Translations under genes and position numbers: made by a program
From: a virus
Lineage: Duplodnaviria > Heunggongvirae > Uroviricota > Caudoviricetes
Virus record (IMG/VR): IMGVR_UViG_3300042401_001499
Strand: one strand, 5' to 3'
DNA: 29,993 nt
Shown here: positions 3,585-29,686 of the stretch, piece by piece
Layout: each line of letters begins with the position of its first letter
Position numbering within the stretch: position 1 is the stretch's first letter
The notes under the pieces: model-generated
Told to the model about the DNA's origin: nothing
The model's input: only the letters and a program-made list of their open reading frames with translations
Databases searched by the model: none

Positions 3585-3980
3585 ATGAAAAGATCAGAAT
3601 TAAGAGAAATAGTCCTTGAAGCAATGAAAGGATATTCTCCACAGGTAGGACAAACTAAGGGAGGAACTACAGATGACTTCAGAAACATTCTTACAGCAAT
3701 AGCAAAAGGACGTCCTGAAGGAGATCCAGTAAGAGGTAATGCAATCTTAGACAAAGCAAACCCAGATAACGTAGCTAGAATTTCTAGAGGTGAAAAACCT
3801 GTTTACGAAGGAGAAGGTGAAGAAAAGACTTATAGAGTAGAGTACTACACAATGGATAGACGTGGTGATGATATAGATTGGGACGAAACAGTACAAGCTA
3901 CTTCAGAAGAAGATGCTATAGCTAAAGTTAAAGCTAATGCCCCTAGACTTGCCAGAGCATTCTCTGCTAAATTAAAATAA
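3585..3980 (+). CDS. Hypothetical protein with MKRSELREIVLE leader; possible internal head protein
   Basis: 131-aa ORF, coupled to the next gene; leader is nearly shared with ORF 21230. Confidence 0.75.
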   Translation: MKRSELREIVLEAMKGYSPQVGQTKGGTTDDFRNILTAIAKGRPEGDPVRGNAILDKANPDNVARISRGEKPVYEGEGEEKTYRVEYYTMDRRGDDIDWDETVQATSEEDAIAKVKANAPRLARAFSAKLK

Positions 3981-4417
3981 TGAAACTGTTTTCCTTATTA
4001 AAAGAGATCTTAGATCCAACTCAAGAATACCAAGAACTTGTAAATGATATCATTGACCAAGGAGGAGAGTATTTAGGAGAAGGTGATTACGGAGTAGTCT
4101 TTATGGTAGGAGATAAAGTAAAAAAAGTTACTACTGATTCAGAGGAACTAGAAGATGCACAGCAAATAAAAGGACAAAGAACCAAATATTTTGTATACAT
4201 TTACGATGTAGAGGTTAGAAATCCAAAACTAGGAATCATTACAATGGAAGATCTACAGCCTTTTACAGGAAATGAAAAGGATGTTCCAATTGACGATATA
4301 ATGGAAGAAGCAGACCTACTAGGAATATATCCAGACTTAGAGGGACCAGGTGGTTCAATTAAAATGGATAACCTAATGCAAGATAAAAGAGGTAGAATTA
4401 AAGTAATAGACGTATAA
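3980..4417 (+). CDS. Minimal protein-kinase-like fold protein
   Basis: Gly loop LGEGDYGVVF, beta3 Lys (VKKVT), hinge IITMEDL, catalytic-loop-like YPDL...DNLM; ends at KVIDV (DFG-equivalent Asp). Confidence 0.65.
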   Translation: MKLFSLLKEILDPTQEYQELVNDIIDQGGEYLGEGDYGVVFMVGDKVKKVTTDSEELEDAQQIKGQRTKYFVYIYDVEVRNPKLGIITMEDLQPFTGNEKDVPIDDIMEEADLLGIYPDLEGPGGSIKMDNLMQDKRGRIKVIDV

Positions 4418-4542
4418 TGGCAAAAGTATCACACAGCTCTCCTCAAAAGACAAGGACCAATAAGAGCAGAAAATCAGTATTAAAAACATTTAACTTAATA
4501 AAGCAAAATGAATTAATACTTAAAAAATTACAGAATGGATAA
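4417..4542 (+). CDS. 41-aa basic peptide (not in ORF track)
   Basis: TAATG-coupled start; MAKVSHSSPQKTRTNKSRKSVLKTFNLIKQNELILKKLQNG; stop overlaps the next start by 8 nt. Confidence 0.6.
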   Translation: MAKVSHSSPQKTRTNKSRKSVLKTFNLIKQNELILKKLQNG

Positions 4543-5119
4543 TTTTGATTTAAAGAAATTCTTAGTAGAGAATAAACTAACTGCAAACTCTAGGTTAGAA
4601 GAAGTAGATAGCGAAGAAGCAGCTTTTGATGCTGAATTTGCACAAGCAGCTAATGCTATTGCAGCAGCAATTGGAACAGAGCTAAAAAGTAAAGATCCAA
4701 AACAGTTAGATGAAGCAATAGTAACTGCTACAGTAGCTGCTATATTAACCGCAAACACAGTAGTAGGTTTTATATCAAAATACTCAGCAAAACTATTTAA
4801 ACTTCTAAACTATAAAAAAGGAGAAGATATTGCAGAAAAGATACACCACTGGGCTCACGATAATGAAAAGAACTTTCAAGCACCTATTAGAAGAGTTTTA
4901 AGCTTCTTTGTAAAAGATCCAAAAACACTAGACCTGTTAACAAAGAGTGTATATGCAATTGTAGTAGGAAGTATGGCAGCCGGGTACGGTGTAGCAGCAG
5001 TTGATAAGCTATCACATGCAGAATGGTTCCAAGGAGCATTATCATCCCTTAAGACAGTAGCAAAATCAGAGGAAGCAATAGTAAACGCATATCCTGCTCT
5101 CAGAAGTTTACTAGTATAG
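4535..5119 (+). CDS. Helical Ala-rich protein with MDNFDLKKFLVENKL leader and two hydrophobic segments
   Basis: 194-aa ORF; hydrophobic stretches AIVTATVAAILTANTVVGFI and VYAIVVGSMAAGYGVAAV. Confidence 0.75.
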   Translation: MDNFDLKKFLVENKLTANSRLEEVDSEEAAFDAEFAQAANAIAAAIGTELKSKDPKQLDEAIVTATVAAILTANTVVGFISKYSAKLFKLLNYKKGEDIAEKIHHWAHDNEKNFQAPIRRVLSFFVKDPKTLDLLTKSVYAIVVGSMAAGYGVAAVDKLSHAEWFQGALSSLKTVAKSEEAIVNAYPALRSLLV

Positions 5120-5141
5120 GGAATACTAAAATAATAAAAGA

Positions 5142-5167
5142 AAGGCTTGTTTATTCAAGTCTTTTTT
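5142..5167 (+). terminator. Probable intrinsic terminator overlapping a promoter -33 element
   Basis: Stem AAGGCTTG/CAAGTCTT (one G-U pair), 6-nt loop, followed by a short T tract. Confidence 0.55.
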
Positions 5168-5177
5168 CGTATCTTAA
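5147..5177 (+). promoter_or_regulatory. Bacteroidota-type housekeeping promoter candidate (TTG-N20-TATCTTAA)
   Basis: TTG at 5147-5149 and TATCTTAA at 5170-5177 with a 20-nt spacer; resembles the TTTG-N19-21-TAnnTTTG consensus. Confidence 0.5.
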
Positions 5178-5201
5178 GATGTCAATCAGTTATGTACAGG
5201 T

Positions 5202-11534: not shown

Positions 11535-11675
11535 ATGGCAAAAGTAAAATCAGCTCCATCAACAACTAAGGTAGATAAACCTAAAGTAGCAAGACCGGGA
11601 GTACATGCAAAATGCAAGACTTCAAAACTTAAATCTTCTAAGAACTATAAGAAGCTTTATAACGGACAAGGATAG
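11535..11675 (+). CDS. 46-aa highly basic peptide ending YNGQG (not in ORF track)
   Basis: MAKVKSAPSTTKVDKPKVARPGVHAKCKTSKLKSSKNYKKLYNGQG; stop TAG 11673-11675, next ATG at 11677. Confidence 0.75.
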   Translation: MAKVKSAPSTTKVDKPKVARPGVHAKCKTSKLKSSKNYKKLYNGQG

Positions 11676-11676: not shown

Positions 11677-11937
11677 ATGAAACTACTAAAAGTACTTCAC
11701 GAGAATTACGGAGGACCAGGTGAACTAGTCTTACCAGAATCACATCAAGCTGGAATGAGAGTTACCAAAGGAGGTTCCATGTGCGCAAATTGCGAATACT
11801 GGACTGAAGAAGGGAACCTATGTACAAGTAAATACTGGAAGAAGTGGTCTGAGGTAGAGGAAATACCCTATCCTGCAGATGAATACTGCTGTAACTGGTG
11901 GGAACCAATGCCTGAAGAAGATAATGCAGAAGTCTAA
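11677..11937 (+). CDS. Small Cys-rich protein (HiPIP-like Cys spacing) with MKLLKVLHE leader
   Basis: CANCEYW...C...YCCNWW. The track start at 11605 overlaps the 11535 ORF, so ATG 11677 is preferred. Confidence 0.65.
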   Translation: MKLLKVLHENYGGPGELVLPESHQAGMRVTKGGSMCANCEYWTEEGNLCTSKYWKKWSEVEEIPYPADEYCCNWWEPMPEEDNAEV

Positions 11938-12352
11938 ACTTATACAACTAGTTAGAGAAGCATTAGATGCCTCTACAACTGCTCCTAATAACATCCCAGG
12001 AGGACTAGCTCAGTATGCTACAGTAGGAGATTTAGCTAAAATGCATAAACTACCTCTCGATGAGATTATAAAGCAGATAATAAAAGGGGTAAAAGTAGAA
12101 TCAGAACATACAACAGATTTGGATATTGCTATGGAAATAGCATTTGACCATGTTTACGAGAATCCTACATATTACGATGATTTAAAAAAAATAGAAGAAG
12201 GAGTACACGATCCTGTTCAACCAGGTATCTTAAAAGATAGGTTAGGTAAACTGTCCTGTACAAAAGTAAGAACAGCACATTCAGCATTAGAAGATAAGGG
12301 TACTCATTACGGAAAAGCATTACAAAGATACCTAAATTATCATTGCAAATAG
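11924..12352 (+). CDS. DUF5661-like protein plus small C-terminal module
   Basis: KGVKVESEHTTDLDIAMEIAFDHVYENPTYY resembles the DUF5661 signature (from recall); ATG 11924 (MQKSKLIQLVRE) preferred. Confidence 0.6.
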   Translation: MQKSKLIQLVREALDASTTAPNNIPGGLAQYATVGDLAKMHKLPLDEIIKQIIKGVKVESEHTTDLDIAMEIAFDHVYENPTYYDDLKKIEEGVHDPVQPGILKDRLGKLSCTKVRTAHSALEDKGTHYGKALQRYLNYHCK

Positions 12353-12387: not shown

Positions 12388-14844
12388 ATGGCAAAATATA
12401 CAAAAACAGAACTTTCAAAAAAACTTTTACAAGTAGAATCAGCAATTGATACTCTAAGAAAAACTAAAGGTTCAAAATCTGAGCAAGGAGTAATTCAAGA
12501 GCAAATCAAACGATTGAAAGAGGTAAAAAACAATCTTTCAACCTTATTAAAAGAGACTACGGTTCCTGCTACACTTTCCTATAAAGGAAACGTACCTGAC
12601 AAAGTACTTAAAGTAGATCCATCAGATGAAGAAACTATTCAAAACATAAAGACAGATCCAAACATAGATCATGCAACAGTTGGGGTTAAGAGAATAAAAG
12701 AAGAAGTAAGAAAATATACTACAGAAGAATCAGCAGCAGTTGGTAAAACAGTTGCTAAATCTCTTTTAAAAGTTCTTAGAGCACAAGGAGATGAAGTTGT
12801 AAAAATAAAACTAACAGGACTAAGACCAGATAAGTTTAACATTCATGTTGAATATGGAAATGATAAAGGAGTAGACACTTTTAAATTCAACCTAAACCCA
12901 GAAGGAACAGCCATTATCTTAAACCTAGGAAACGAATCAATGGAACTAGTAGACTTTGTGATTACACAGGGTAATACTGTCTCTCTACCGGCTCCTGACC
13001 TAGAAGATAAACTAAGTGATGCAATGAAAAAGTACGTTGGAGAACCAGTAGATAACGAATTCGGTCAAGCAGAACAGCCTATCTACGAAGATGATCACTT
13101 ACAGTCAGATGATGAATCTTCAATGGCACAAGCACAATTAAAATCCATTCAATCCAATGCAAGTAAGTTAATGGATATAATAGGAGACGATGAGCAATTA
13201 GATGCATGGGTTCAATCTAAACTAACCAAAGCAGAAGATTACCTAGATGCAGCAGCAGGATATCTACACTCAGAAGAAGACCAAGCACCTGTTACATTAG
13301 CAGTAACATTAGATGAAATCTCATTTAAGATAAACGGTTTAGGTAACTATACAAGTATTAAAGGAGATAACGAAACAATTACAGGAAGAGACCAAGGAGG
13401 AACAGTTAGAACTTTTACAAGAAAGAGAATAGAACAAGATAACCCGGGAATCTTTGATAAACAGCCAAGAGAAAGAAAGCCAAGAGAGATAAAACCTCAA
13501 GGAGTTCGTCCTTATTCAGAAGCACAGTATAGAAAGATCTTACAAGGAGCAATTGATGATGCAGGTAGTACAGAATTTGCTTACGATATAGCAGACTCTA
13601 TGATATACGATCCACAAATACTTGCTAGGCTTAAAAAAGACTACCCAGGAGACTCAGCTAGAGAGTTAAAACAAAGACTTCAATGGGATTTAGAAGCTTG
13701 TGATTCACCAGAAGATGATTACGATGATGACTATGAAAGTGAAGTAGCAGAAGCAGTACTAAATGAAAAGAAAGCTACATATTGCGGAAGATGTGGACAT
13801 ACCCATGTTAAGGGTACACCTTGTCCAAGACCTTTTAAAGAAGGTGTAGTAGCAGAAAAACTAGGGCCTAAATCTAAACCGGAAACATACATAAAAGACT
13901 TCAAAAAATCAGATGCTCCTCAATTTAAAGGAAAATCAGCAGAGAAGAAAAGGCAAATGGCCATAGCAGCTTATATGTCAAACAAAAATGAAGCATTAGA
14001 TGCAGTAGGAAAAGAGGATGACGATATTAACAATGACGGAAAAGTCGATAAAACAGATAAGTACCTAAAACACAGAAGAGATGTTGTTTCTAAAAAACTG
14101 TCAGAAGGAGCAATAAAAGATTTATTTAAAGACCCAATGCAGGCTGCAGATGCTAGAGGATGGATTAGAAACCCTAAACTATCAGATACTGAAAAAAGAG
14201 ATAAAATTAAATCTGTAATGAAAGATCCTTCTAAGTTTAATGACTTAATGGATGCTTTTACAGATGAATTAGGAAACGTAAAAAATGCAATCTCTAAAAA
14301 AGAACTAAAAGAAATAATGCTAGAAGCATACGTTGAAATTCTTCAAGAGGAAGAAGGAGCAGTTCTTAAAACATCTACAGAAGAAATACTAGGAAAATTT
14401 CCTACAGTTAAAAAAGCATTAGTATCTTTATTCACACAAGAATATCCAGAATTTGTAACAGATGTAAGATGGGTAGTACCAAAACCTTCCACATTCGCAG
14501 TTGATCTTAAAAATGGTCAATCATTCAATATTAAATGGATGGGTAAAGGATTTGAAGCACAAATTGAAGGTAAAAAATACTATTTAGATAAATTAGCAGA
14601 ATACCAACAAGCGTTAGATAAGATAAACGATCTTCTTAAAAACGGACCGATTACAACTGGTGAAGAACCAGGTGGAGAAGAGTTTGGAGCACCAGCAGCA
14701 GAACCAGCAGCCGGAGGCGGAGGTGGTGGAGACTTTCCAGGTGGAGAAGCCGGAGGCGGTGAAGAACCAGCACCTGAAGGTGGAGAAGAAGGCGGAGAAG
14801 CAGCAGCAGCAGAATTTGAAGAAGAAACACCAGAAGCACTTTAA
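12388..14844 (+). CDS. Large acidic mosaic protein, probable internal head/core polyprotein
   Basis: 818 aa of short unrelated modules ([51 protein letters not shown]) with a Gly/Glu/Pro low-complexity tail. Confidence 0.7.
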
Positions 14845-14856: not shown

Positions 14857-15906
14857 ATGAGCGTAATAGATAAAGTAGTTAACGAATGGGCATTCCGATG
14901 TAAGAAAGGATACCCAGATATGAATAATCCTGATGATATGAAAATATTAAAAGAGATTTATTCTGAATACGGGGTAGTATTAGAGGAAGAAAAGCCTAAG
15001 GAGGAGGTTGATAATCAAGCTTTGTTATCACAAATAGCAACACTACTACAGGCTGAAAAAGGAAATAGTAAGCTTCTAACAAGAATCTATAGAACATTAA
15101 CTTCAAACCCTTCTATTGATGCACTTAAGCAAAAATTAGAGGATGCAGGTATTGGGAAAAACACTTTTGATAATAGAAATTTATTTAATGAAATAATAAC
15201 AATTTTACAAAAAGGAGAAAAGAGCGATATAGGAAGTTTAGTAAAATACTTAGAGCAATCTAAGATACCAAAAGAGGGTAATATCTATACACAAGTACCT
15301 GAACTCCCTACTCAAAAACTGCAAGCAATAGGTAACCTAACAGGTGCTAAAGGAACTACAGCTATGGGAAAAGGAGAGATACTATTCCCATTAATATTCT
15401 CAGATATTAAACTTAGAATCAGTGATGCAGGAGATTTTACTAGAAATGGTAAAACCGTAGAACTGAAAGCCATTGGAGTCGGGAAAGAGGGCAAACAATC
15501 GGGTGGAGGAAGGTTTGGAGTTGCAAGAGCGTTTGAAAATTACGAACCCCTTAATACGAATGTAGCAAAAGGTTTTAGCCAAGCTATGAAAAACGATTAC
15601 CTTTCCTTCTCAGAAGAGGAAAAAGATAAACCACTTTCTAATATTAATAAGTACATACAGAAGATATATCCAGGATCCTCTCAAGTTGTAGATAAAAGTA
15701 ATATACAATCACTTAATATTCTTTTACAAAAAGCAGCCATAGAGAGTTACGTCTCTATAAAAAAAATAGATGAATTTCTACTTTTTAACCCCATTACCGG
15801 AGATTTCAAACTAATAACACCAGCAAAAGCATTAGTAGACCTTGCAGGCACCCCGGAAGTAGGTCTTACTACCGCTACAGTACCGCAATTAATATCTTTT
15901 AACTAA
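14857..15906 (+). CDS. Hypothetical protein with PD-(D/E)XK-like motifs
   Basis: GKGEIL...AGDF...VELKA (15367-15468) fits motifs I, II and III; N-terminal MSVIDKVVNEW module. Confidence 0.55.
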   Translation: MSVIDKVVNEWAFRCKKGYPDMNNPDDMKILKEIYSEYGVVLEEEKPKEEVDNQALLSQIATLLQAEKGNSKLLTRIYRTLTSNPSIDALKQKLEDAGIGKNTFDNRNLFNEIITILQKGEKSDIGSLVKYLEQSKIPKEGNIYTQVPELPTQKLQAIGNLTGAKGTTAMGKGEILFPLIFSDIKLRISDAGDFTRNGKTVELKAIGVGKEGKQSGGGRFGVARAFENYEPLNTNVAKGFSQAMKNDYLSFSEEEKDKPLSNINKYIQKIYPGSSQVVDKSNIQSLNILLQKAAIESYVSIKKIDEFLLFNPITGDFKLITPAKALVDLAGTPEVGLTTATVPQLISFN

Positions 15907-15915
15907 ATAACAAAC

Positions 15916-15923
15916 TATTTATA
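15916..15923 (+). promoter_or_regulatory. TATTTATA box (putative late promoter)
   Basis: First T lies 25 nt upstream of ATG 15941. Confidence 0.6.
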
Positions 15924-15940: not shown

Positions 15941-16807
15941 ATGGCAGATAATTTTAATTTAAGAACATTCTTAACAGAGAATAAACTTACAAAGAATACA
16001 CAAATTCTTAAAGAAGGAAGTGATTACGGATTTGATGAAGTAATGGATGCAATAGCAGACGACTTTACACCAGGTACCCCTGAATTTCAACAAATGGAAG
16101 ATGCAGTACAAGATGCATTCCACAACGGACAAGTAGACACTTCAGAATTTAGTCACGATCCATCAGCTCCAGGTAGAGAGATGAGAGCAATTGCTAATCA
16201 AATTGGATTAGGTGACGAACAAGCTAATGACATCGAACAAGCACAACACGATATTGAAAGACAATTTGAAGAAGGAGTAAACGAAAGTACTTTAACTGAT
16301 AAAGAAAGACGTCTAGTAGAGATGGTTCAAGATGCTTTAGGAGAAGAAAATGTAGACTATACAATGGGACGTCAAGACGATCCAAACCAACTTCCAAATC
16401 CCGCTCCAGAATTAAACATTCCAGAAGGAGAAGAAAGCATTGAAGAAGCAAAACCTCTTCCAAAATACAATTCAATTGAAGAATTGATGAAAGAGATTGA
16501 GAACGGAACTAACGAAGCAGCTCATAAATACAAAATGGATGAGATGAAAAGAGTTTACGAAGCACTAGAGGCTAAGGTAGGATCTTTAGAAGAAGGAGAG
16601 CATGCTGAACACATCGATCAAAAAGCTGTTAAACAAATGCGTAAAGATATTGCAGCATTAAGAAAAGCAGAAGAAAAACTAAGAAAAGAATTCGACAAAA
16701 AATTCACAGGTAAAGAGAAAAAAGAAACTCCTAAAAAAGATAAAGAAGTAGTAGCTTTACAAGAGGGATTTGACTTAAGAAAATTCTTAGCAGAAAACAG
16801 AAAATAG
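15941..16807 (+). CDS. Acidic/coiled-coil protein with the same F.L..FL.EN motif at both termini; probable head core protein
   Basis: Starts MADNFNLRTFLTENKL and ends GFDLRKFLAENRK. Confidence 0.75.
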   Translation: MADNFNLRTFLTENKLTKNTQILKEGSDYGFDEVMDAIADDFTPGTPEFQQMEDAVQDAFHNGQVDTSEFSHDPSAPGREMRAIANQIGLGDEQANDIEQAQHDIERQFEEGVNESTLTDKERRLVEMVQDALGEENVDYTMGRQDDPNQLPNPAPELNIPEGEESIEEAKPLPKYNSIEELMKEIENGTNEAAHKYKMDEMKRVYEALEAKVGSLEEGEHAEHIDQKAVKQMRKDIAALRKAEEKLRKEFDKKFTGKEKKETPKKDKEVVALQEGFDLRKFLAENRK

Positions 16808-18492: not shown

Positions 18493-20349
18493 ATGGCAGA
18501 AAGAAATTTATTTACCTCACTCCAGAGGTTATTCTCAACTGATATATTAGTTAGAAACGTAGGAGGGGATGAGTTAAAGATTGCTGATGTTAATCACATT
18601 CAATCAACAGGGAAATATCAGACCAATTCACTATTGGATAGATTCTCTCGACTGTATATATACAATAACAAAAACATATTCAATCCAAACCTTAACTATC
18701 AAACACTTAGGGTACAGCTTTATTCAGATTATGAAGCAATGGATACAGATGCAATTATAGCCTCTACGTTAGATGTACTAGCAGATGAGTCTACACTTAA
18801 AAATCAAGTAGGAGAAGTTCTTTCTATTAAATCTACAGACGAAAACATACAAAGAGTCCTTTATAACTTATATTACGATGTATTAAACATCGAATTTAAC
18901 CTATGGTCATGGGTTAGGAATATGTGCAAGTACGGGGACTTCTTTTTAAAACTAGAGATCTCAGAGAAATTTGGAGTTTACAATGTACTTCCTTATACAG
19001 TTTACCATATGGTTAGACATGAAGGGATGGATAAAGAAGATCCAACTAAAGTAACATTCTCAATTGATCCAGACGGATTAGCTTCTTCAGCAGATCCAAA
19101 TTACATTCCAAACAATAGTAAACAAACCATTACATTAGACAACTACGAAGTAGCTCACTTTAGATTAATATCAGATACAAACTACCTTCCTTATGGTAGA
19201 TCTTATATCGAACCAGCTAGAAAAATCTACAAACAATTAACTTTAATGGAGGATGCAATGTTGATTCATAGAATCATGAGAGCTCCTGAGAAGAGAATGT
19301 TCTACATCAACGTAGGATCTATTCCACCAAACGAAGTTGAGCAGTTTATGCAAAAGACTATTAGCAGTATTAAGAAAACTCCTTATGTAGATCCACAAAC
19401 AGGTCAATACAACTTGAAATTCAACATGCAAAACATGATGGAGGATTTCTATCTTCCAGTTCGTGGTGGTGATACTTCAACAAAAATTGAGACAACCAAA
19501 GGATTAGAGTATGATGGTACAAATGATATTGAGTACTTAAGAGATAAAATGTTTGCAGCACTTAAAGTGCCAAAAGCATATTTTGGATACGAAAAAGACC
19601 TTACAGGTAAAGCAACTCTTGCAGCAGAAGATATTCGTTTTGCTAGAACAGTAGAAAGACTTCAAAGAATTGTAGAAAGTGAATTAACTAAAATTGGCTT
19701 AGTGCATTTATACTCTCAAGGATTCGATAAAGAGTCTTTAGTAAACTTTGAAATCAAATTAACTACACCTTCTATCATTTATGAACAAGAAAAAGTAGCA
19801 CTTTGGAAAGAAAAAGTTGACTTAGCAACTCAAATGCAATCAACAAAACTATTCTCATCAGATTATATCTACGATATGCTATTTGACATCTCAGAAGATA
19901 AATACAACGAAATGAGAGAACTTATTAGAGAGGATGCTAAAAGAGACTTTAGAATATCTCAAATAGAAAACGAAGGAAACGATCCAGTATCAACAGGACT
20001 ATCTTTTGGAACACCCCACGACCTAGCTTCAATCTACGGAAGAGAACAAGGTGAATTACCAGCAGGATATGACGAAACTGCACCAGTAGGAAGACCTAGA
20101 GAGAAGATGTCAATCATAGGTACCAATGCAGATCCGGTAGGTGGAAGAGACAGACTAGGAGTTCATGGAATGAAAGGCGGTTTTCCAAGTGATAATGAAA
20201 ACGTAAGAGAAGGTATAAACAATACCATGTCAGTTTTTCTAAGAAATAAAAACCTCTTCCCTACTAAGAAACAAAATATCTTTGAGGAAGAAGCAGAAAT
20301 CGAATCAGATCTTCTAAATGAAGCTAACATTAAGGATTTAGATAACTAG
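18493..20349 (+). CDS. gp20: Portal protein (T4 gp20-like)
   Basis: LMEDAMLIHRIMRAPEKRMFYINVG, EDFYLPVRGG, DIEYLRDKMFAALKVPK, EDIRFARTV; located directly after terL. Confidence 0.95.
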   Translation: MAERNLFTSLQRLFSTDILVRNVGGDELKIADVNHIQSTGKYQTNSLLDRFSRLYIYNNKNIFNPNLNYQTLRVQLYSDYEAMDTDAIIASTLDVLADESTLKNQVGEVLSIKSTDENIQRVLYNLYYDVLNIEFNLWSWVRNMCKYGDFFLKLEISEKFGVYNVLPYTVYHMVRHEGMDKEDPTKVTFSIDPDGLASSADPNYIPNNSKQTITLDNYEVAHFRLISDTNYLPYGRSYIEPARKIYKQLTLMEDAMLIHRIMRAPEKRMFYINVGSIPPNEVEQFMQKTISSIKKTPYVDPQTGQYNLKFNMQNMMEDFYLPVRGGDTSTKIETTKGLEYDGTNDIEYLRDKMFAALKVPKAYFGYEKDLTGKATLAAEDIRFARTVERLQRIVESELTKIGLVHLYSQGFDKESLVNFEIKLTTPSIIYEQEKVALWKEKVDLATQMQSTKLFSSDYIYDMLFDISEDKYNEMRELIREDAKRDFRISQIENEGNDPVSTGLSFGTPHDLASIYGREQGELPAGYDETAPVGRPREKMSIIGTNADPVGGRDRLGVHGMKGGFPSDNENVREGINNTMSVFLRNKNLFPTKKQNIFEEEAEIESDLLNEANIKDLDN

Positions 20350-20378: not shown

Positions 20379-21233
20379 ATGCGTATTAAACACAGTAAGT
20401 ATAAAAACACGGGCCTGATATTTGAACTATTAGTAAAGCAAATAGCAGCGGATACCTTATCTAAAAGGGATTCCCCGGCTTTAACGGTACTAAGAAAATT
20501 CTATACAGGAAACACAACACTAGTAAGAGAGTTTAAATTATACGATTTTGTATTAAAGAATAAAGGCGTAGGTCCTAAAAAAGCAGAATCAATACTTAGT
20601 ACTATAGTAGAGATATCTAGAAAGTTAGATACAAATTCACTTAGTAAGCAAAAATACGAGCTTATAAAAGAACTTAAAAGTCATTATGATTTAGAAGAAT
20701 TCTTTTCTATTAAAGTAGAAGCTTACAAACCACTAGCAGCTCTTTACTGTTTAATGGAAGCACAAAATGCAGCAGGCCTAGTAGACTTAGATGTATTTGT
20801 TGATAATAAAACTACAATACTTGAGCACTTAACTCAAAGTAAAACAGCAGAAGGACAAGTAAAAAATGCTTTGATTGAAGAATATTCTAAATATGATAAA
20901 GACTTAAGACTTTTAACATATAAAATATTACTAGAAAAATTCAATCATCAGTATAAAGATTTACTTCCAGAACAAAAAAACATTTTAAAGGAATTTATAG
21001 TATCAGTTAATTCATCAGCTAGATTAAGAAATGTAGTCAATGAAGAGATGACTAAATTACAGGTAGAAATCTCTAACTTAAAAAAGAATATTACTGATAA
21101 AGTAGTTAAAATTAAATTAGAAGAGATTCAAAAAGTAATTATTCCAATAAAAAACACACAAAAAGTAGATGACAATCATTTAGTTTCATTAATGCAATAC
21201 TATGAATTAGTAAATGAATTAAGAAGTCTATGA
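20379..21233 (+). CDS. Helical hypothetical protein between portal and protease (possible prohead core component)
   Basis: 284-aa ORF starting MRIKHSKYKNTGLIFELL; function inferred from position only. Confidence 0.7.
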   Translation: MRIKHSKYKNTGLIFELLVKQIAADTLSKRDSPALTVLRKFYTGNTTLVREFKLYDFVLKNKGVGPKKAESILSTIVEISRKLDTNSLSKQKYELIKELKSHYDLEEFFSIKVEAYKPLAALYCLMEAQNAAGLVDLDVFVDNKTTILEHLTQSKTAEGQVKNALIEEYSKYDKDLRLLTYKILLEKFNHQYKDLLPEQKNILKEFIVSVNSSARLRNVVNEEMTKLQVEISNLKKNITDKVVKIKLEEIQKVIIPIKNTQKVDDNHLVSLMQYYELVNELRSL

Positions 21234-21577
21234 AAAGATCAGAAATAATTAAAGCAGTTCAGGAAGTCTTAGAAGAAATGAGCACAACTGGAGGAGTAGG
21301 AGGATATTCTACACCATTTGCTTTTTCTAAAAAAGGAGCTGGAGCTAATGCAGCCACTAAAGCTTCTCAAAAGCTAGGATTTAAAGCAGCACCAAGACCA
21401 AAACATCCTTCACATACTAAAATGTTTGATTACTTAGATGAGATGCAGGTAAGTTCACCTAATGTCTTTGTATCAGAAGCAGAAATGGAAAACAGTGATG
21501 CAGTAAAGAAGACAAAAGAAATGGGTTACAAGCTAGTAAAGAAAACCAACACCGCATCAGATAAAAAGAATAAATAA
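21230..21577 (+). CDS. Hypothetical protein with MKRSEIIKAVQEVLEE leader
   Basis: 115 aa, ATGA-coupled; EMSTTGGVGGYSTPFAF module follows the leader. Confidence 0.75.
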   Translation: MKRSEIIKAVQEVLEEMSTTGGVGGYSTPFAFSKKGAGANAATKASQKLGFKAAPRPKHPSHTKMFDYLDEMQVSSPNVFVSEAEMENSDAVKKTKEMGYKLVKKTNTASDKKNK

Positions 21578-22522: not shown

Positions 22523-23101
22523 ATGAACAATTTATTAGTAAATGTAACTCCTTTTAAAGGATTGCTTACCGAATCAAAGGCTAGACCCGGAGTATACGAA
22601 GTGGTGGGTATCATGCAAAGAGCAGGAGCAAAGAATCAAAACGGAAGAATCTATAAAAGAGAAATTCTTGAAGAAGAAGTTCGAAATTATGTAGAGAATT
22701 TTGTTAAGATAGGAAATGCATACGGAGAATTAGATCATCCAGAATCAGCAATTGTATCTCTTAAAAATGCTTCACACGTAGTAAAAGAACTATGGTGGGA
22801 GGGAGATGACTTGATGGGTAAAGTAGAATTACTAAATACACCTTCAGGAAATATTGTAAAAGAGATATTAAAAGGAGGACATACAATGGGAATCTCTTCT
22901 AGAGGAACAGGATCAGTAACTCAAACAAACGAAGGAACTTTAATGGTTCAACCAGACTTTGAATTAGTATGTTGGGATTTTGTTTCTAATCCTTCTACAC
23001 AAGGAGCTTTTATGAATCCAATTTCTTTAAACGAAGGAAAACAAGCAGTAGGAAAATATGATAGATTAGATTCTATTATTAACAATATATTAAGAGCATA
23101 A
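22523..23101 (+). CDS. gp21: Prohead core protease (T4 gp21-like)
   Basis: NQNGRIY, GELDHP (catalytic His), GISSRGTGS (catalytic Ser), WDFVSNPST. Confidence 0.95.
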   Translation: MNNLLVNVTPFKGLLTESKARPGVYEVVGIMQRAGAKNQNGRIYKREILEEEVRNYVENFVKIGNAYGELDHPESAIVSLKNASHVVKELWWEGDDLMGKVELLNTPSGNIVKEILKGGHTMGISSRGTGSVTQTNEGTLMVQPDFELVCWDFVSNPSTQGAFMNPISLNEGKQAVGKYDRLDSIINNILRA

Positions 23102-23424
23102 TGGAAAATAATTTTGACATGCACCAATGGCGTGCAAATTTTTTAAAAAAAGTATTAAAAGAAGAGATAACAAAAGACAGCCCATCATTTAGAAAGCTAG
23201 TACTGAAATTGGAAGAGATAAGTGAAGAAAGTGGAAATGATTGGGAAGCTTTAAAGGCATACTTAAAAGGTAGATACGCATTTTTTGAAACATACACTAC
23301 TGGTAATAACCCAGCTGCTTACGTAGTTAATTTCTTTTCAATTACCAAAGGAAAGGATGAATACGTTGAGAAAAATCCATCAGATTATGTACAAATAGGT
23401 GACTGGTATATTAGACCATGGTAA
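23101..23424 (+). CDS. Hypothetical protein with MENNFDM...VLKEE leader
   Basis: 107-aa ORF, TAATG-coupled to the protease gene. Confidence 0.7.
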   Translation: MENNFDMHQWRANFLKKVLKEEITKDSPSFRKLVLKLEEISEESGNDWEALKAYLKGRYAFFETYTTGNNPAAYVVNFFSITKGKDEYVEKNPSDYVQIGDWYIRPW

Positions 23425-23588: not shown

Positions 23589-24845
23589 ATGTCAAACAAA
23601 GATTTATTAAAGCAAGCTATTGCTGAAGCGAAAACTATTCGTGAAGCTGCAATTGCAAATGCTAAAGAAGCTTTAGAAGAAACATTGACTCCACACTTAA
23701 AAGAAATGCTTGCTCAGAAATTGCAAGAAATGGAAGATAAAGAAGATGAGACAGTGGATGAAACTATTAACAACGCCGAAGCAGAAAGCTATTCTGAAAA
23801 TCCATCAAAACATGGTAATTTAGAAGAAGCAGAAGAAGAGGAAGAGGAAGCTGAAGAAGAAGAAACTCCTGAAGAAGGAGAAGAAGGTGAAGAAGAAGAG
23901 GAATTAGAAATCGAAGACATGTCAGTTGAAGATTTAAAAGACCTAATCAGAGACATCGTTGCACAAGAAGCAGGTCAAGAAGAAGAAGCAGACTTAGAAG
24001 CCGGAGAAGAAGGTCCAGAAGGACAAGAAGATATGGTGAGTATGGATGGTGATTCAGAAGAGATTGATATCAACGAACTATTAGCAGAACTAGAAGGAAT
24101 GGACGAACAAGAATTAGATGAAAAAGGTGGAGGGTATATGAAAGAGCCTTCTGACTCTGCAGCAGCAGGATTAGAAAACTTAATCTCTATGGTTAAATCT
24201 ATCAAGTCACCAGAATCTATCGCTAAAATCAAAGCTTTCCTTAAAGCACTTCCAGCAGCAGCAGGATCAGCCTTAAGATCAGAAGGATTAGACGAACAAG
24301 ACTTAGACGAAAAAGGTGGAGGATACATGAGAGAGCCTTCTGACTCTGCATCAGCAGGATTAGAAAACTTAATCTCAATGATCAAATCACTTAAATCACC
24401 TGAGACAATTGCAAAAGTAAAAGAATTCCTAAAAGGTCTTCCAGCAGGAGCATCAGCAGCAATGCGCTCTGAAGAAGTTGAGCAAGATCTACAAGAAGCA
24501 TTACAAGCAGTTAAAATTTTAAGAAATCAACTTCAAGAAGTTAATCTTTTAAATGCAAAATTACTTTATGTAAATAAAGTATTCAAATCAACTAACCTAT
24601 CTGAAGGTCAAAAAGTAAATGTTATCGCAGCATTTGACAAAGCCGAAACAGTTAGAGAAGTAAAATTAGTTTTCGAAACAGTTTCTAAAAACGTAGTTGC
24701 TAAACCAGCTGCACTTAAAGAGCACAGATCTTTTGCTTCTAAAGCAACAGGTAATGCAACAACAACTGCACCAAAAGAAATTATATCAGAAGTATCTGAG
24801 CAAGTTCAAAGATGGCAGAAGTTAGCAGGAATTATTAAATCATAA
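23589..24845 (+). CDS. gp22: Prohead scaffold protein (T4 gp22-like)
   Basis: Lies between protease and MCP; helical N-terminus (LLKQAIAEAK..REAAIANAKEALEE), very acidic middle, C-terminal EVNLLNAKLLY...RWQKLAGII. Confidence 0.8.
   Translation: MSNKDLLKQAIAEAKTIREAAIANAKEALEETLTPHLKEMLAQKLQEMEDKEDETVDETINNAEAESYSENPSKHGNLEEAEEEEEEAEEEETPEEGEEGEEEEELEIEDMSVEDLKDLIRDIVAQEAGQEEEADLEAGEEGPEGQEDMVSMDGDSEEIDINELLAELEGMDEQELDEKGGGYMKEPSDSAAAGLENLISMVKSIKSPESIAKIKAFLKALPAAAGSALRSEGLDEQDLDEKGGGYMREPSDSASAGLENLISMIKSLKSPETIAKVKEFLKGLPAGASAAMRSEEVEQDLQEALQAVKILRNQLQEVNLLNAKLLYVNKVFKSTNLSEGQKVNVIAAFDKAETVREVKLVFETVSKNVVAKPAALKEHRSFASKATGNATTTAPKEIISEVSEQVQRWQKLAGIIKS
24102..24479 (+). repeat. Tandem duplication of 189 nt (63 aa) inside the scaffold gene
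   Basis: DEQELDEKGGGYMKEPSDSAAAGLENLISM... begins at 24102 and DEQDLDEKGGGYMREPSDSASAGLENLISM... at 24291. Confidence 0.95.
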
Positions 24846-24869: not shown

Positions 24870-26456
24870 ATGGAATTAAATCAATTATTCGAAGGTTCAA
24901 ACAATTACAAGTCTTTACAAGCTGATGCAGCTCGTTTGTCTGGTAAATGGGCCAAATCAGGTTTGTTAGAAGGTATTTCTAACGAAATCGAAAGAAACAA
25001 CATGGCTATGATTCTTGAGAATCAAGCAAAACAAATCGTATCTGAAGCTAATACTACAGGTAACGGTGCAATTGGTACTGCTACAGGTGGTGCTGAACAA
25101 TGGGCAGGTGTTGCTTTACCATTAGTACGTAAAGTATTCGCTCAAATCGCAGCTAAAGATTTTGTATCTGTACAACCAATGAACTTACCTTCAGGTCTTG
25201 TATTTTACTTAGACTTTAAATACGGTACAACAGCTAACGGAAGAACTTCAGGAGATAATCTTTACGGTAATGTATCTACAGCTAATGACAAAATGTCAGT
25301 AGACGAAGACGTAGCAGGCGGTTTATACGGTGCAGGTCAATTCGGTTACTCAATTAACCCTAAAGATTTCGCTATTGCAACTCAAGCTACAGGATCAGCT
25401 GGATCAGCTTCTATTGCTTACCAAGACGGAATTAACCCATCTGCATACTTTACAGCAGCAGTAAACATGGCAACTTCAGCTTCTTTTGACCATAAAGGTG
25501 TAAGAGCTTTCAGATTGTATTCAGGTTCAACAGATATTACAACTAACCCAGAACTTACAACAGTATCAGGAGACGTAGTAACATTCGTAGTAGCAAAAAC
25601 AGCAACAGCTGCAGGTTCTATTACAGGTAAAGTTGTTTTCCACTTACAACCAACTGATAACACAAGAGGTGATTTTGAAGACGGAGCTACTAGCCCAGCT
25701 AACGGAACAATCTCTATCCCAGAAATCAACGTATCATTAGCTTCTGAATCTATTGTTGCTAAAACAAGAAAATTAAAAGCACAATGGACCCCAGAGTTTG
25801 CACAAGATTTGAATGCTTATCACTCAATCGATGCTGAAGCAGAATTAACTTCATTATTATCAGAATATATCTCTATGGAGATTGACTTAGAATTAATGGA
25901 TATGTTGATCCAAGATGCAGCTACAACTGAAAGATGGTCAGCAGTAAACAACAAACAATGGAATGGTACAACTTGGGCTACAACAGGTAACTTCTACAAC
26001 ACTCAAGGTCAATGGTTCGGAACTTTAGGTACTAAAGTACAAAAAGTATCTAACAAAATTCACCAAAAAACTTTAAGAGGTGGAGCTAACTTCTTAGTAT
26101 GTTCTCCAACTGTAGCTACAATCTTGGAATCAATTCCTGGATATGCAGCAGATACAAACGGTGACAAAATGGACTTCGCAATGGGCGTTCAGAAAGTAGG
26201 TAACTTGAATTCTCGTTTCAAAGTTTACAAAAACCCTTACATGACTGAAAACGTAATCTTGTTAGGTTACAGAGGATCTCAATTCTTGGAAACTGGTGCA
26301 GTTTATGCTCCATATATTCCATTAATCATGACTCCATTAGTATACGATCCAGTTACCTTCACTCCAAGAAAAGGTATCATGACTCGTTACGCTAAGAAAA
26401 TGATCAGACCAGAATTCTACGGTAAAATCTTCGTTAGCGATATCGCTACTGTATAA
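24870..26456 (+). CDS. gp23: Major capsid protein (T4 gp23-like)
   Basis: VSVQPMNLPSGLVFYL, AKTRKLKAQWTPEFAQDL, DAEAELTSLLSEYI, YAPYIPL, TPRKGIMTRY; likely propeptide site IVSE|A; strong codon bias. Confidence 0.97.
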   Translation: MELNQLFEGSNNYKSLQADAARLSGKWAKSGLLEGISNEIERNNMAMILENQAKQIVSEANTTGNGAIGTATGGAEQWAGVALPLVRKVFAQIAAKDFVSVQPMNLPSGLVFYLDFKYGTTANGRTSGDNLYGNVSTANDKMSVDEDVAGGLYGAGQFGYSINPKDFAIATQATGSAGSASIAYQDGINPSAYFTAAVNMATSASFDHKGVRAFRLYSGSTDITTNPELTTVSGDVVTFVVAKTATAAGSITGKVVFHLQPTDNTRGDFEDGATSPANGTISIPEINVSLASESIVAKTRKLKAQWTPEFAQDLNAYHSIDAEAELTSLLSEYISMEIDLELMDMLIQDAATTERWSAVNNKQWNGTTWATTGNFYNTQGQWFGTLGTKVQKVSNKIHQKTLRGGANFLVCSPTVATILESIPGYAADTNGDKMDFAMGVQKVGNLNSRFKVYKNPYMTENVILLGYRGSQFLETGAVYAPYIPLIMTPLVYDPVTFTPRKGIMTRYAKKMIRPEFYGKIFVSDIATV

Positions 26457-26543: not shown

Positions 26544-27419
26544 ATGAATACAGGAGAGTTATCTTGGCAGCAGTTTAGAACTTTAGATTCAATGAGAAAT
26601 CTAAACGAAAACCAGCAAATGACACACTACTATAAGTATTTAGTAGAACTAAACGAGTGGATGAGTCATCAAAATAAAGGAGATTTAACCACGCAAATAA
26701 TTACCTGTGCGGATGGTATGGACATAGTATTCTTAGTAGACTATACAGCAAGTATGTTTACTGCAATTAATGCAATTAAAGCAGCAATTACATCTATTGT
26801 TGCAGCAATTGTAGTAGAGTCAGGAAATAACTATAGACTAGGGTTAGTATTATTTGATGAATATAAAGCACCTTTTTATCCAGAAACAGCCTACTACGAA
26901 GGAACAGCAACTTACCTCGGATTACCTGTAGGACAAAAATACACAAACGTATATGACACCGTAGGAACTCTTGAAGATAGAAAGCAGTACATAACTGCAA
27001 TGGAAGTATTTTCTCAAAATAACGAAAGTACCTTCACAACTCAACTCAACCTACTAAACACAGATGACTTTCCCCTAGGGTACGGAGCAGACATACCAGA
27101 ACCCTCAGATATGGGTATTGATAGAATAGTAAACTATAACTTAGCAGGAACCTTTAGAGATAATGTATCAAAGCTTATAATACTCATAACAGATGAACCT
27201 TCTTCTGGTGACGATGATATAAATAATGCAACAGATACGGCATTTGCACAAACATTAATAGCAGACTGTAATGCTAAAGGGATTAAAGTACTGCTTATGA
27301 AATCAACATCAGATTCATATGCTCCTCTAGAAACATTAGCATTAGGAACAGGAGGTTTAGTGACTGATTCATTTACTCCATCAGCAATCATAGCTAGTAT
27401 AGAAAATATCTGTACATAG
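26544..27419 (+). CDS. von Willebrand factor A (vWA) domain protein with short N-terminal helical module
   Basis: DIVFLVDYTASM (MIDAS D-x-T-x-S), RLGLVLF, GYGADIPE, LIILITDEP, LETLALGTGG. Confidence 0.85.
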   Translation: MNTGELSWQQFRTLDSMRNLNENQQMTHYYKYLVELNEWMSHQNKGDLTTQIITCADGMDIVFLVDYTASMFTAINAIKAAITSIVAAIVVESGNNYRLGLVLFDEYKAPFYPETAYYEGTATYLGLPVGQKYTNVYDTVGTLEDRKQYITAMEVFSQNNESTFTTQLNLLNTDDFPLGYGADIPEPSDMGIDRIVNYNLAGTFRDNVSKLIILITDEPSSGDDDINNATDTAFAQTLIADCNAKGIKVLLMKSTSDSYAPLETLALGTGGLVTDSFTPSAIIASIENICT

Positions 27420-27444
27420 TAATAAATTAAAATAAAGAACAAAG

Positions 27445-27469: not shown

Positions 27470-27473
27470 CGTA

Positions 27474-27480: not shown

Positions 27481-27504
27481 TGTAAACAAATACAGTTTAT
27501 ATCT

Positions 27505-28191
27505 ATGGCTTCAAATCATCACACCGACGAGGTTTATACTCAAAAGAGAAAACCAAAACAGCCCATCAAATTTAACTTAGTTCTCAACGAAGAACAAAAA
27601 CTAGCAAAAGCAATTATTTTAGAAAATCCTGTAACCGTTTTAAAAGGAATGGCAGGATCAGGAAAAACACTTGTAGCGGTACAAGCAGCTTTAGATTTAC
27701 TTTTTAATAAAGAAGTAGAGAAGATTATTATAACAAGGCCAACAGTAGCTAAAGAAGATATAGGATTTTTACCAGGCGATTTAAAAGAAAAAATGGATCC
27801 TTGGTTAGCACCAATTTATCATAACTTATACGCTTTATACAGTAAAGATAAAGTAGATAAAGAACTAGCAAATGGAAATATTGAAATTGTACCTTTTGCA
27901 TTTATGAGAGGAAGAACATTTTTAAAATCTTTTGTAATAGTGGATGAGGCACAGAATGTTACCCATGATCAAATGGAAACAGTAATTGGGAGACTGGGTA
28001 AAGAGTCTAAGATGGTAATATGTGGAGATTTAGCACAAATTGACCTAAAAGTAAAGAAAGAAACCGGCTTCTCATTCTTAACTAGAATTGAAGAGCATGT
28101 AAAAGGCTTTGCAGTATTCTCACTACTCCAGAATCATAGACATCCAATTGTAACACCTATCTTAAAAATCTATCAAGACTTTAGGGATTAG
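27505..28191 (+). CDS. phoH: PhoH-family ATPase
   Basis: GMAGSGKTL, RPTV..EDIGFLPGDLKEK, FMRGRTF, IVDEAQN, RLGKESKMVICGD..QID. Confidence 0.95.
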   Translation: MASNHHTDEVYTQKRKPKQPIKFNLVLNEEQKLAKAIILENPVTVLKGMAGSGKTLVAVQAALDLLFNKEVEKIIITRPTVAKEDIGFLPGDLKEKMDPWLAPIYHNLYALYSKDKVDKELANGNIEIVPFAFMRGRTFLKSFVIVDEAQNVTHDQMETVIGRLGKESKMVICGDLAQIDLKVKKETGFSFLTRIEEHVKGFAVFSLLQNHRHPIVTPILKIYQDFRD

Positions 28192-28201
28192 TATAAATTG
28201 C

Positions 28202-28208
28202 TATTTAT
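28202..28208 (+). promoter_or_regulatory. TATTTAT box
   Basis: 22 nt upstream of ATG 28224. Confidence 0.5.
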
Positions 28209-28223
28209 TAATAAAGTATATCA

Positions 28224-29381
28224 ATGGCAAATATTTCTATATGGAATGGTAGTTCTACATTTGCACCAGGACAAACACCTTTTCACTTTTACGATGCAGA
28301 TCCAGAATTTACAGCTTCAGCTGATAAGGTAGCATCCTATTGTGCTATCCGCTTGGGGTATCCACTAATGGATGTAGAACTAAACTCAGGATCTTTCTAT
28401 GCTTGCTTTGAAGAAGCAGTTACCACTTATGGAAACGAAGTATACCAAGCACTTGCAGTACAGAACTATATGTCTCTAGAAGGAGGATCAACAGCAACAA
28501 CTTTAAACAACGCAGTAATCTCTCCAAATCTTCAAAACGTTATTAGAATTTCTAACAACTATGGAACAGAAGCAGGAGTAGGAGGAGATGTGACTCTACA
28601 TAAAGGAGAACTATCAGTATCAGCAAATGTACAGGAATATGACTTGAAAGCATGGGCTAGTGGATCAGGAATAACAGGAAGTATTGAAGTAAGAAAGGTT
28701 TACTATGAAGCACCTCCTGCAATTATGAGATACTTTGACCCTTATGCAGGTACAGGAACAGGTATTCAATCTCTTATGGATGCATTTGATTTTGGATCAT
28801 ACTCGCCAGGGGTAAACTTCTTATTAATGCCAATCTCTTATGACTTATTAAAAGTACAGGCAATTGAATTTAATGACCAGGTAAGAAAATCAGCATACTC
28901 TTTTGAGATACATAATAATAACTTAAGGTTATTTCCAACACCTAAAACAGCCGGTTCAATTTGGTTTGAATACTATAAAGTAAACGAAAAGCAGTCTTTA
29001 AATGATGCAGCTTCAACAGCAGGAGGATTAGGGGCATCTATTTCAAACATATCAAATGTACCCTATACAAACCCTAGCTACGCAGGTATTAATGCAATAG
29101 GTAGACAATGGATTTTTAAATATGCATTAGCTCTTTCAAAAGAACTTTTAGCATACGTTAGAGGAAAGTATACAACAGTACCAGTACCGGGCTCAGAAGC
29201 TACTCTAAATCAAGCAGATTTATTAGCAGATGCAAGGTCGGAAAAAGAAGCATTAATTGGTAACTTAAGAGATATATTAGAAAAAACATCAAAGGTAAGT
29301 CAACTGGAAAGAAAAGCTCAAGAGGCTGGATTTTTACAAGATACATTAAAAATGGTACCAATGGTAATATTTGTAGGATAA
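28224..29381 (+). CDS. gp13: Neck / head-completion protein (T4 gp13-like)
   Basis: YCAIRLGYPLMDVEL...ACFEEAV N-terminal signature and WIFKYALALSKELL...RGKY..VPVPG C-terminal signature; position after the head module. Confidence 0.75.
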   Translation: MANISIWNGSSTFAPGQTPFHFYDADPEFTASADKVASYCAIRLGYPLMDVELNSGSFYACFEEAVTTYGNEVYQALAVQNYMSLEGGSTATTLNNAVISPNLQNVIRISNNYGTEAGVGGDVTLHKGELSVSANVQEYDLKAWASGSGITGSIEVRKVYYEAPPAIMRYFDPYAGTGTGIQSLMDAFDFGSYSPGVNFLLMPISYDLLKVQAIEFNDQVRKSAYSFEIHNNNLRLFPTPKTAGSIWFEYYKVNEKQSLNDAASTAGGLGASISNISNVPYTNPSYAGINAIGRQWIFKYALALSKELLAYVRGKYTTVPVPGSEATLNQADLLADARSEKEALIGNLRDILEKTSKVSQLERKAQEAGFLQDTLKMVPMVIFVG

Positions 29382-29686
29382 TGAAGATAAAAAATTTAAT
29401 AAACGAAGTAACCTTTTCAATGTACCAAGGACTTGTAAGAGTTGGGCACAAAGAAGAAATAACTGCCTCAGAGGTAGCTGACTTTGTTAGGGCTATGCCG
29501 GGTGTTACAAGAGTAACTGCAATTGATTCTAACGAGGATACAAATGTAGTGGTACTTAAAGTAAAAATATTAACAGCTAAACCAGGTCCAGTAGTCTTTG
29601 AAAAATTAAAAAAAGATACTTTTAAATTAGTACCAAATATTAAGAAGGTAGAATTGTCTTTAAAATCAATTGAAAAAATAGAGTAA
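29381..29686 (+). CDS. Small hypothetical protein with MKIKNLINE leader
   Basis: 101 aa, TAATG-coupled at both ends; alpha/beta pattern (EVADFVRAMPGVTRV). Confidence 0.7.
   Translation: MKIKNLINEVTFSMYQGLVRVGHKEEITASEVADFVRAMPGVTRVTAIDSNEDTNVVVLKVKILTAKPGPVVFEKLKKDTFKLVPNIKKVELSLKSIEKIE

Follow-up and report, generated by a model that had tools for sequence, protein, structure and literature searches.

This report concerns short N-terminal peptides, here called leaders, that are common to otherwise unrelated proteins encoded on a 29,993-nucleotide stretch of tailed-phage DNA (IMG/VR record IMGVR_UViG_3300042401_001499, Caudoviricetes; the whole stretch is referred to as the window). By its sequence, the window represents the late region of an Immutovirus-like Flavobacterium myophage whose prohead is of the T4 type. 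The leaders fall into distinct families, are modular, replace one another on the same protein bodies, occur on a very large scale and are linked to the genes of the head module. We consider it probable that they target proteins to the capsid and are then removed by the head protease; binding, cleavage, encapsidation and injection of the tagged proteins are the parts of this reading that we infer. A first-pass annotation of the same DNA had listed twelve N-termini ending in hydrophobic-x-Glu and had proposed at least two leader families on unrelated proteins. All twelve N-termini are present and the families are real (A, B and a D type in the window, plus C in relatives), but the list brings together several phenomena, not one.

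Leader A on unrelated proteins

Leader A has the consensus MxNFDLKKFLVENKLTxNSxxLxE, about 23-25 residues long. It heads two open reading frames (ORFs) of the window and, in degenerate form, a third:

4535..4603, + strand: leader A MDNFDLKKFLVENKLTANSRLEE of ORF 4535-5119; profile E 2.9e-15; its L-E-E end is a [LIVM]-x-E site
15941..16015, + strand: leader A MADNFNLRTFLTENKLTKNTQILKE of ORF 15941-16807; profile E 2.4e-18
23101..23166, + strand: degenerate leader A MENNFDMHQWRANFLKKVLKEE of ORF 23101-23424; ortholog in locus L082

In a contig-wide blastp comparison, ORFs 4535 and 15941 were linked by the leader alone (E 2.6e-4), their bodies being unrelated. The degenerate leader of ORF 23101 is replaced in its L082 ortholog by a canonical A leader on the same body (...KEEITKD). 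The product of ORF 15941, whose gene lies directly 5' of the terminase gene, is an acidic coiled-coil protein.

The N-termini of 225 ORFs of Flavobacterium phage vB_FspM_immuto, a 160-kb myovirus of the genus Immutovirus to which the head region of the window is 86% identical at the DNA level, were compared all against all, with shuffled and internal sequences as controls. The best control score, shuffled or internal, was 34-38; pairs of family A scored 55-81 and the family C pair 75, and family B was borderline at 37-44. A strict leader-A pattern had four matches in the six-frame translations of the 160 kb, each of them at residue 3-4 of an ORF; applied to the contig of the window, it matched ORFs 4535 and 15941 at their starts and the latter once more at its very C-terminal end. 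An unsupervised search, in which 1,227 ORFs from leader-A loci were clustered by their first 28 residues and only pairs with unrelated bodies were kept, returned families A and B, tail-fibre N-termini, signal peptides, the N-terminal domain of ORF 14857 and small D groups.

When IMG/VR was searched at the DNA level with a degenerate pattern for F[DN]L[KR]xFLxEN[KR]L, at least 116 viral loci were found. Among the matches listed, a Met stands 2-4 residues upstream in 141 of 148 in-frame cases, tagged genes occur in tandem (up to four per locus), and the bodies of 114 distinct A-led proteins form 50 unrelated clusters, the largest of which, with 30 members, is that of ORF 15941. Residues T16, N18, S19 and the final L-x-E are conserved although they lie outside the search pattern. 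A Pfam match, to an HD domain, was obtained for one of 51 cargo representatives. In a library of 1.84 billion proteins, a 32-position profile of leader A matched the representatives of 1,636 clusters (50% identity) at a library-wide E <= 1e-3; among 50,697 isolate phage records, the leader was found in immuto phages only.

These results bear on the possibility that the leaders are chance resemblances in a proteome rich in Leu, Lys and Glu, a caveat that the first-pass annotation had itself raised. That explanation is barely credible and, for A and B, is already refuted: the null maximum of 34-38 lies below the 55-81 of family A pairs, 141 of 148 listed matches are N-terminal, 1,636 clusters pass the library-wide cut-off, and the profile of leader B matches N-termini exclusively, at 1e-6 to 1e-8. 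What it has in its favour is that generic hydrophobic-x-Glu occurs in 36-37% of ORFs, that three of the listed N-termini (ORFs 14857 and 21579 and the major capsid protein, MCP) are not shared leaders, and that the D pattern was defined post hoc. The caveat continues to apply to ORFs 11677, 29381 and 2292.

The shared 5' ends could also be DNA or mRNA elements, such as recombination cassettes or translation-initiation regions, that have no function as peptides. Tandem arrays of up to four leader genes per locus, suggestive of shuffling via conserved 5' ends, and A-rich sequence 5' of the start codons would fit this idea. However, third codon positions of leader A are less informative than first and second positions and its Leu codons alternate, which implies selection on the peptide; conservation spans about 25 codons; intact in-frame copies lie far from start codons; and distinct leader families swap on one body. 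We therefore regard a purely nucleic-acid role as highly improbable.

Leaders B and D

Leader B follows the pattern MK[KR]S[EQ]LxxIIxE over about 12-16 residues and heads three ORFs of the window:

3585..3620, + strand: leader B MKRSELREIVLE of ORF 3585-3980; B-profile E 1.6e-7
21230..21277, + strand: leader B MKRSEIIKAVQEVLEE of ORF 21230-21577; B-profile E 4.4e-7
11924..11959, + strand: leader B MQKSKLIQLVRE of ORF 11924-12352; B-profile E 0.005

In loci not selected for B, the family (MK[KR]S[EQ]Lxx[IL][IV]xE) has 62 members in 15 body clusters. The product of ORF 21230 is small and basic and occupies the T4 gp67/gp68 position of the head module; a B-led gene between ORFs 20379 and 21579 is conserved in relatives, and a search of the 50,697 isolate phage records with ORF 21230 gave matches in immuto phages only. 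Orthologs of ORF 11924, whose body matches Pfam DUF5661 (2.6e-11), begin MKKSQL[RK]xIIKEALDAS. The DUF5661 domain of this ORF also matches T4-like cyanophages, Caulobacter phage Cr30 and a Vibrio phage VPs20 protein annotated DUF2213. The near-identical pairs that the first-pass annotation took as its strong evidence both belong to real families, although ORFs 3585 and 21230 share just 7 of 12 residues.

D-type leaders are shorter (about 9-10 residues; patterns MKLxxLLxE, MIKLxDLLxE and MISLxxILKE), and most of the window's examples are weak:

3980..4006, + strand: D-type leader MKLFSLLKE of ORF 3980-4417; orthologs begin MISLYNILKEVI
11677..11703, + strand: weak D-like MKLLKVLHE of the Cys-rich ORF 11677-11937; agrees with the D pattern as defined post hoc, but its sole homolog has another N-terminus
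29381..29407, + strand: weak D-like MKIKNLINE of ORF 29381-29686, 3' of the head-tail adaptor gene
2292..2321, + strand: weak D-like MIKLLNLLVD of ORF 2292-3230, absent from the first-pass list

The D tag of ORF 3980 also heads another body in L116, and in loci that were not chosen for D, such tags are found on 23 body clusters. Their N-terminal enrichment (3 of 61 ORFs against 0.01-0.1 expected) refers to a pattern that was defined post hoc. Because the N-terminus of ORF 29381 is conserved together with the body in 15 homologs, modularity cannot be shown for it. ORF 3980-4417 contains a protein-kinase-like glycine loop and Lys motif (LGEGDYGVVF..VKKV) within its 145 residues and has no Pfam or PHROG match.

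Leader C and the scaffold tail

The acidic scaffold of the window ends in a C-terminal tail, EIISEVSEQVQRWQKLAGIIKS (24777..24842, + strand), whose sequence is copied by leader C in related phages. The string [MW]QKLAGII occurs at 119 places in IMG/VR. In 93 of these it is the extreme C-terminus of scaffold-like ORFs of 300-490 residues, which share the N-terminus M(A/S)NKDL(F/L)KQAIAEAK with the window scaffold; in 21 it lies near the N-terminus of other ORFs, as MKKQILSEEFRRMQKLAGIITE. Leader C is the C-terminal scaffold tail plus T-E. The same relation emerged in immuto without selection by pattern, where the best non-paralog match of leader C was residues 392-412 of the 413-residue scaffold (E 7.5e-4). 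The window's contig has the tail and no C-led ORF.

The scaffold itself is acidic and helical, with conserved N- and C-termini in 74 distinct sequences. Its N-terminus, MSNKDLLKQAIAEAK (..AIAE/A, the slash marking the position after Glu here and below), resembles that of T4 gp22, MLKEQLIAEAQK (..LIAE/A). Since it has no Pfam or PHROG family match, its homology to gp22 rests on position and the N-terminal motif. Among the 50,697 isolate records, its C-terminal domain is also found in Microcystis phage Mel-JY01 and in one unannotated megaphage record. Two other ideas of mimicry were considered. Leader B is similar by eye to the scaffold N-terminus, yet the B profile does not pick up the scaffold; and the best match of the A profile outside its family, the T4 gp22 segment WLAENKL (within ..EWLAENKLAV..), has E 0.78 and is a mere lead.

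Leader swapping and linkage to the head module

The leaders replace one another on the same bodies, and this swapping is the strongest new evidence. The clearest case is the body of ORF 4535:

4604..5119, + strand: body of ORF 4535, helical, with two hydrophobic, transmembrane-like segments and an invariant WAHxNE

This body carries leader A in the window and in L011, L024, L087 and L102; leader B in immuto gp175, L091, L122 and L123; leader C in L227; and D in L115, L162, L172 and L215. In L102 (760-1344, - strand), the ortholog has a full leader A followed by a Met-less D remnant (..SRVLAE/TEILKE/SDENQL..). Two further body families alternate between A and C. Since A, B, C and D thus stand in for one another, we place them in one functional class.

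A role as prohead-core or ejection protein may be considered for the conserved body of ORF 4535. Across its family, H108, N110 and E111 (the WAHxNE motif) and K137 are invariant and lie between the two hydrophobic helices. AlphaFold2 predicts an all-helical protein, at a mean pLDDT of 57 alone and 52 with a 15-row alignment, too poor for fold searches.

The genes of the window's head module, all on the + strand like every gene of the window, are as follows:

16888-18462, + strand: large terminase
18493-20349, + strand: gp20-type portal
ORFs 20379, 21230 and 21579, + strand: between the portal and protease genes; 20379 and 21579 have no assigned role
22523-23101, + strand: prohead protease, T4 gp21 / Peptidase S77 family (phrog_207, 7.8e-52)
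23101-23424, + strand: small ORF between the protease and scaffold genes
23589-24845, + strand: acidic scaffold, gp22 analogue, by its position between the protease and MCP genes
24870-26456, + strand: MCP, gp23 family (phrog_138, 1.9e-72)

In L115, L172 and L123, a 4535-type gene is found between the genes for protease and scaffold, and in L162 a related gene is found there. Several related lineages have the 4535-type gene as a fixed member of the head module. A B-led gene occupies the gp67/68 position in L115 and L162 as well, and L115 has an A-led gene directly next to the protease gene. Of the 14 leader ORFs of immuto, 11 belong to a set of 27 ORFs that lie in the head module or just 5' of it (hypergeometric P = 2.6e-9). 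Peptidase_S77 is encoded in all five of the large leader-A genomes tested.

These results also bear on a rival in which the leaders are real modular N-terminal helices that serve oligomerisation, docking to some other structure of phage or host (such as the tail, the membrane or the GroEL/ES that phages of the lineage encode) or degradation at a set time; a hyperplastic late region, not capsid loading, would then explain why they cluster near head genes. Such a role would account for D-type tags on a nucleotidase and other bodies and for the part of the leader genes that lies outside the structural region. It is harder to reconcile with a leader that copies the scaffold tail, with the substitution of A, B, C and D for one another on the same bodies, with tagged genes between the protease and scaffold genes, or with a conserved block that stops exactly at a protease-type site. 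We consider this rival unlikely, if far from negligible.

Predicted cleavage sites and internal leader copies

The first-pass annotation had reported a gp21 homologue, and this is borne out: in addition to its PHROG match, the window protease is 35% identical to T4 gp21 (E 3e-31) and retains the His and Ser motifs ELxHP and SSRG (ELDHP and ISSRG, aligned with ELNHP and VSSRG). T4 gp21 cuts after L/I-x-E (PMC9026906). The N-terminus of the window protease (22523-22582) contains an L-T-E site, MNNLLVNVTPFKGLLTE/S, much as T4 gp21 has LIE-9; the site is compatible with self-processing.

The leaders end in sites of this type. Among the matches listed, [LIVM]-x-E is present in 91 of 103 distinct A leaders, its Glu being 19-20 residues past the first Phe, against a background rate of 0.0245 per residue, and conservation collapses downstream of that Glu, where no residue exceeds 25%. 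Leader B ends in I/V-x-E and leader C in I-T-E. For the MCP, the first-pass list had included the N-terminal MELNQLFE; we reject this as the maturation site because a MAFFT alignment sets FLTE/AEIGG of T4 gp23 opposite QIVSE/ANTTG, which predicts a cut after V57-S58-E59, before A60 (E59 codon 25044-25046). Across 35 homologs, E59 does not vary, and V57 is conserved at 90% or more.

Two internal, in-frame leader copies had been missed by the first-pass annotation:

14290..14325, + strand: internal leader B in ORF 12388-14844
16757..16804, + strand: truncated second leader A at the C-terminus of ORF 15941 (LQE/GFDLRKFLAENRK, then stop); domain E 4.8e-5

Residues 635-818 of ORF 12388 match stand-alone B-led genes of six other phages, with each alignment starting at residue 1 of the stand-alone gene (E 1e-44 to 1e-64). 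ORF 12388-14844, of 818 residues, is a fusion: its N-terminal part, which ends Cys/His-rich (..CCHKCGHVHVKGTAHP..), is a separate gene elsewhere, and its C-terminal 184 residues are a separate B-led gene in other phages. The truncated leader of ORF 15941 is, as its sequence reads, the remnant of a fused downstream leader-A gene, imm194-like. Full-length fused versions are found in L021, L072, L079, L095 and many database proteins, with the internal leader preceded by L-x-E. Two copies of leader A occur in 48 of the best 150 database matches, the internal copy typically following ..ALQE/G or ..ELKE/G. Intact internal copies behind L-x-E fit the cutting of a polyprotein-like cargo and argue against a translation-start element.

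On the capsid-targeting reading, proteins would be tagged at the N-terminus with one of a few interchangeable 'address' peptides: A, B and D-type, and C in relatives. An amphipathic leader would co-assemble with the scaffold core or the shell interior during prohead formation. The protease would then cut after the [LIV]-x-Glu at the end of the leader and also at the L-x-E sites that flank internal leaders in fused, polyprotein-like genes. The mature protein would remain in the head and exit with the DNA. A complex prediction combining MCP, scaffold and residues 1-40 of leader A, run with custom alignments and without controls, gave a score of 0.00, which counts neither for nor against this reading.

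N-termini that share only a generic motif

The hydrophobic-x-E pattern by which the twelve N-termini had been selected is at chance level. [LIVMF]-x-E occurs in the first 16 residues of 36-37% of all ORFs, in the contig and in the complete relative immuto alike, and in 27% of internal 16-residue windows. A comparison of motif frequency with other ORFs, proposed at the outset as one way to refute the idea, thus goes against the loose motif, which is uninformative. Most of the twelve belong to the A, B and D-type families; about a quarter (ORFs 14857 and 21579 and the MCP) are not shared leaders.

ORF 14857 is rejected as the bearer of a short leader because it has a conserved N-terminal domain of ~40 residues. 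In the family of ORF 14857-15906 (35 members), this domain, MSVIDKVVNEWAFRCKKGYPDMNNPDDMKILKEIY, is highly conserved and the C-terminal parts are too divergent to be linked by BLAST; it may be a modular protein of another kind. ORF 21579 is rejected as well, its N-terminus being conserved along with the protein, with L-Q-E kept and FLAE not. The idea of a large enzyme cargo found no support either, as the A- and B-tagged ORFs of the window are without enzyme matches in Pfam or PHROG, and Pfam and PHROG scans of the tagged ORFs did not confirm the labels 'kinase-like' and 'nuclease-like'.

A promoter-like motif and neighbouring genes

The motif MTATTTATW has 12 matches in the window between 2241 and 28209, all on the + strand and each shortly 5' of a gene start; 11 are intergenic and one lies within the end of the preceding gene. 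Shuffled sequences gave 5.4 matches on both strands together, against the 12 observed. The motif precedes the terminase, portal and scaffold genes (sites include 16862, 18467, 20353 and 23484) and two leader genes, ORFs 3585 and 15941:

3531..3539, + strand: promoter-like ATATTTATA, 5' of the leader-gene block 3585-5119
15915..15923, + strand: promoter-like CTATTTATA, 5' of the leader-A gene 15941

It is reminiscent of the T4 late promoter, TATAAATA, and is probably the core of a late-type promoter of the phage. Its presence before leader-gene blocks and the terminase, portal and scaffold genes is a hint, at the level of expression, in favour of the capsid-targeting reading.

The region 5' of the head module encodes a primase, an exonuclease, nucleotidyltransferase-like ORFs, a 5'-nucleotidase and numerous ORFs without assigned function. 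A small, basic ORF at 11535-11675 (46 residues, ..KVARPGVHAKCKTSKLKSSK..) is conserved in at least six related phages. ORF 26544-27419, 3' of the capsid gene, weakly matches the von Willebrand factor A domain (PF00092, 3.1e-7).

Discussion

Several observations weigh against capsid targeting. [LIV]-x-E is common in the Leu/Lys/Glu-rich proteome of the phage. The A and B profiles have no significant match among T4 head proteins, a set that does not include the internal-protein (IP) sequences. Some immuto leader genes are distant from the head module, such as gp3, beside the DNA polymerase gene, and gp42. In related phages D-type N-termini are also found on a 5'-nucleotidase, which would be an unexpected cargo, so that D may be a more general N-terminal helix. 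Finally, the clustering in the head region and the co-occurrence with S77 could come in part from shared ancestry and tandem duplication.

The closest known system is the capsid-targeting sequence (CTS) of T4, which is carried by IPI, IPII, IPIII and the Alt propeptide and is removed by gp21 (Mullaney and Black 1996; reviewed in PMC9026906, PMC3012670 and PMC12373910). For IPIII, the N-terminal 10 residues are enough for targeting to the gp22 core, and the IPs co-purify with gp22 (PMC9026906). Like the CTS, the leaders are short N-terminal peptides, modular tags common to otherwise unrelated, fast-evolving small proteins; they end in L/I-x-Glu, a gp21 homologue and a gp22-type scaffold are encoded with them, and tagged genes lie in and beside the head module. 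Unlike the CTS (MKTYQEFIAE, as quoted by the first-pass annotation), to which they have no detectable sequence homology, they comprise at least four interchangeable families with a putative targeting function in place of the single T4 family, and leader A is 23-25 residues long with two candidate cut sites. The scale differs too: about 8-11 ORFs are tagged in the window and 14 in immuto, compared with 3-4 in T4; there are 1,636 clusters for leader A alone, internal in-frame copies, and one family that literally copies the scaffold tail.

Giant phages offer a second comparison. In phiKZ, 201phi2-1 and SPN3US, N-terminal propeptides of inner-body or ejection proteins are cut at S/A-x-E by gp21-like proteases (PMC5694885, PMC9026906). 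Processing of many head-internal proteins after Glu, established there, is predicted here, and giant-phage paralogs likewise combine conserved N-termini with diverged bodies; the mature part of one giant-phage ejection protein includes a transmembrane segment, a feature shared with the ORF 4535 family. In contrast to the leaders, giant-phage propeptides are mostly longer than 100 residues and include no promiscuous short tag. The cleavage motif is S/A-x-E there and [LIV]-x-E here, and the giant-phage cases are backed by mass spectrometry whereas the leaders are known from sequence.

Leader C, which reuses the scaffold's own terminal tail, recalls a principle of cargo loading seen elsewhere, in which unrelated cargo is directed by a short terminal peptide with affinity for the inner face of an HK97-fold shell. 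The C-terminal coat-binding domain of the P22 scaffold loads cargo into capsids in engineered systems, and encapsulins, which are non-viral, use cargo-loading peptides. Unlike these, the tags described here are natural, N-terminal and apparently removable by a protease. A full-text literature search found no paper with the leader strings FLVENKL or QKLAGII, and we found no published description of the leaders.

We propose, tentatively, that T4-like phages of aquatic Bacteroidota may possess a small, interchangeable alphabet of peptides that address proteins to the prohead, and that one or more of these peptides originated as a copy of the C-terminal scaffold tail; that these load a very large, fast-turning effector repertoire (more than 1,600 clusters for leader A); and that the fused genes encode polyprotein cargo cut in the prohead. 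Because immuto phages and their Flavobacterium host are in culture, the idea is directly testable.

The three internal proteins of T4 are all injected inhibitors of type IV restriction enzymes and are recognisable only by their shared leader (PMC12373910). If the proposal is true, a leader would be a sequence handle for the injected anti-defence and host-takeover proteins of uncultured phages; should the leaders work as in T4, hundreds or thousands of candidate injected proteins could be picked out by a simple sequence key in aquatic phages that are abundant and mostly uncultured. Capsid addressing would then be both modular and evolvable, with four interchangeable tags, one of them derived from the scaffold, and the leaders would constitute new natural tags for loading proteins into capsids.

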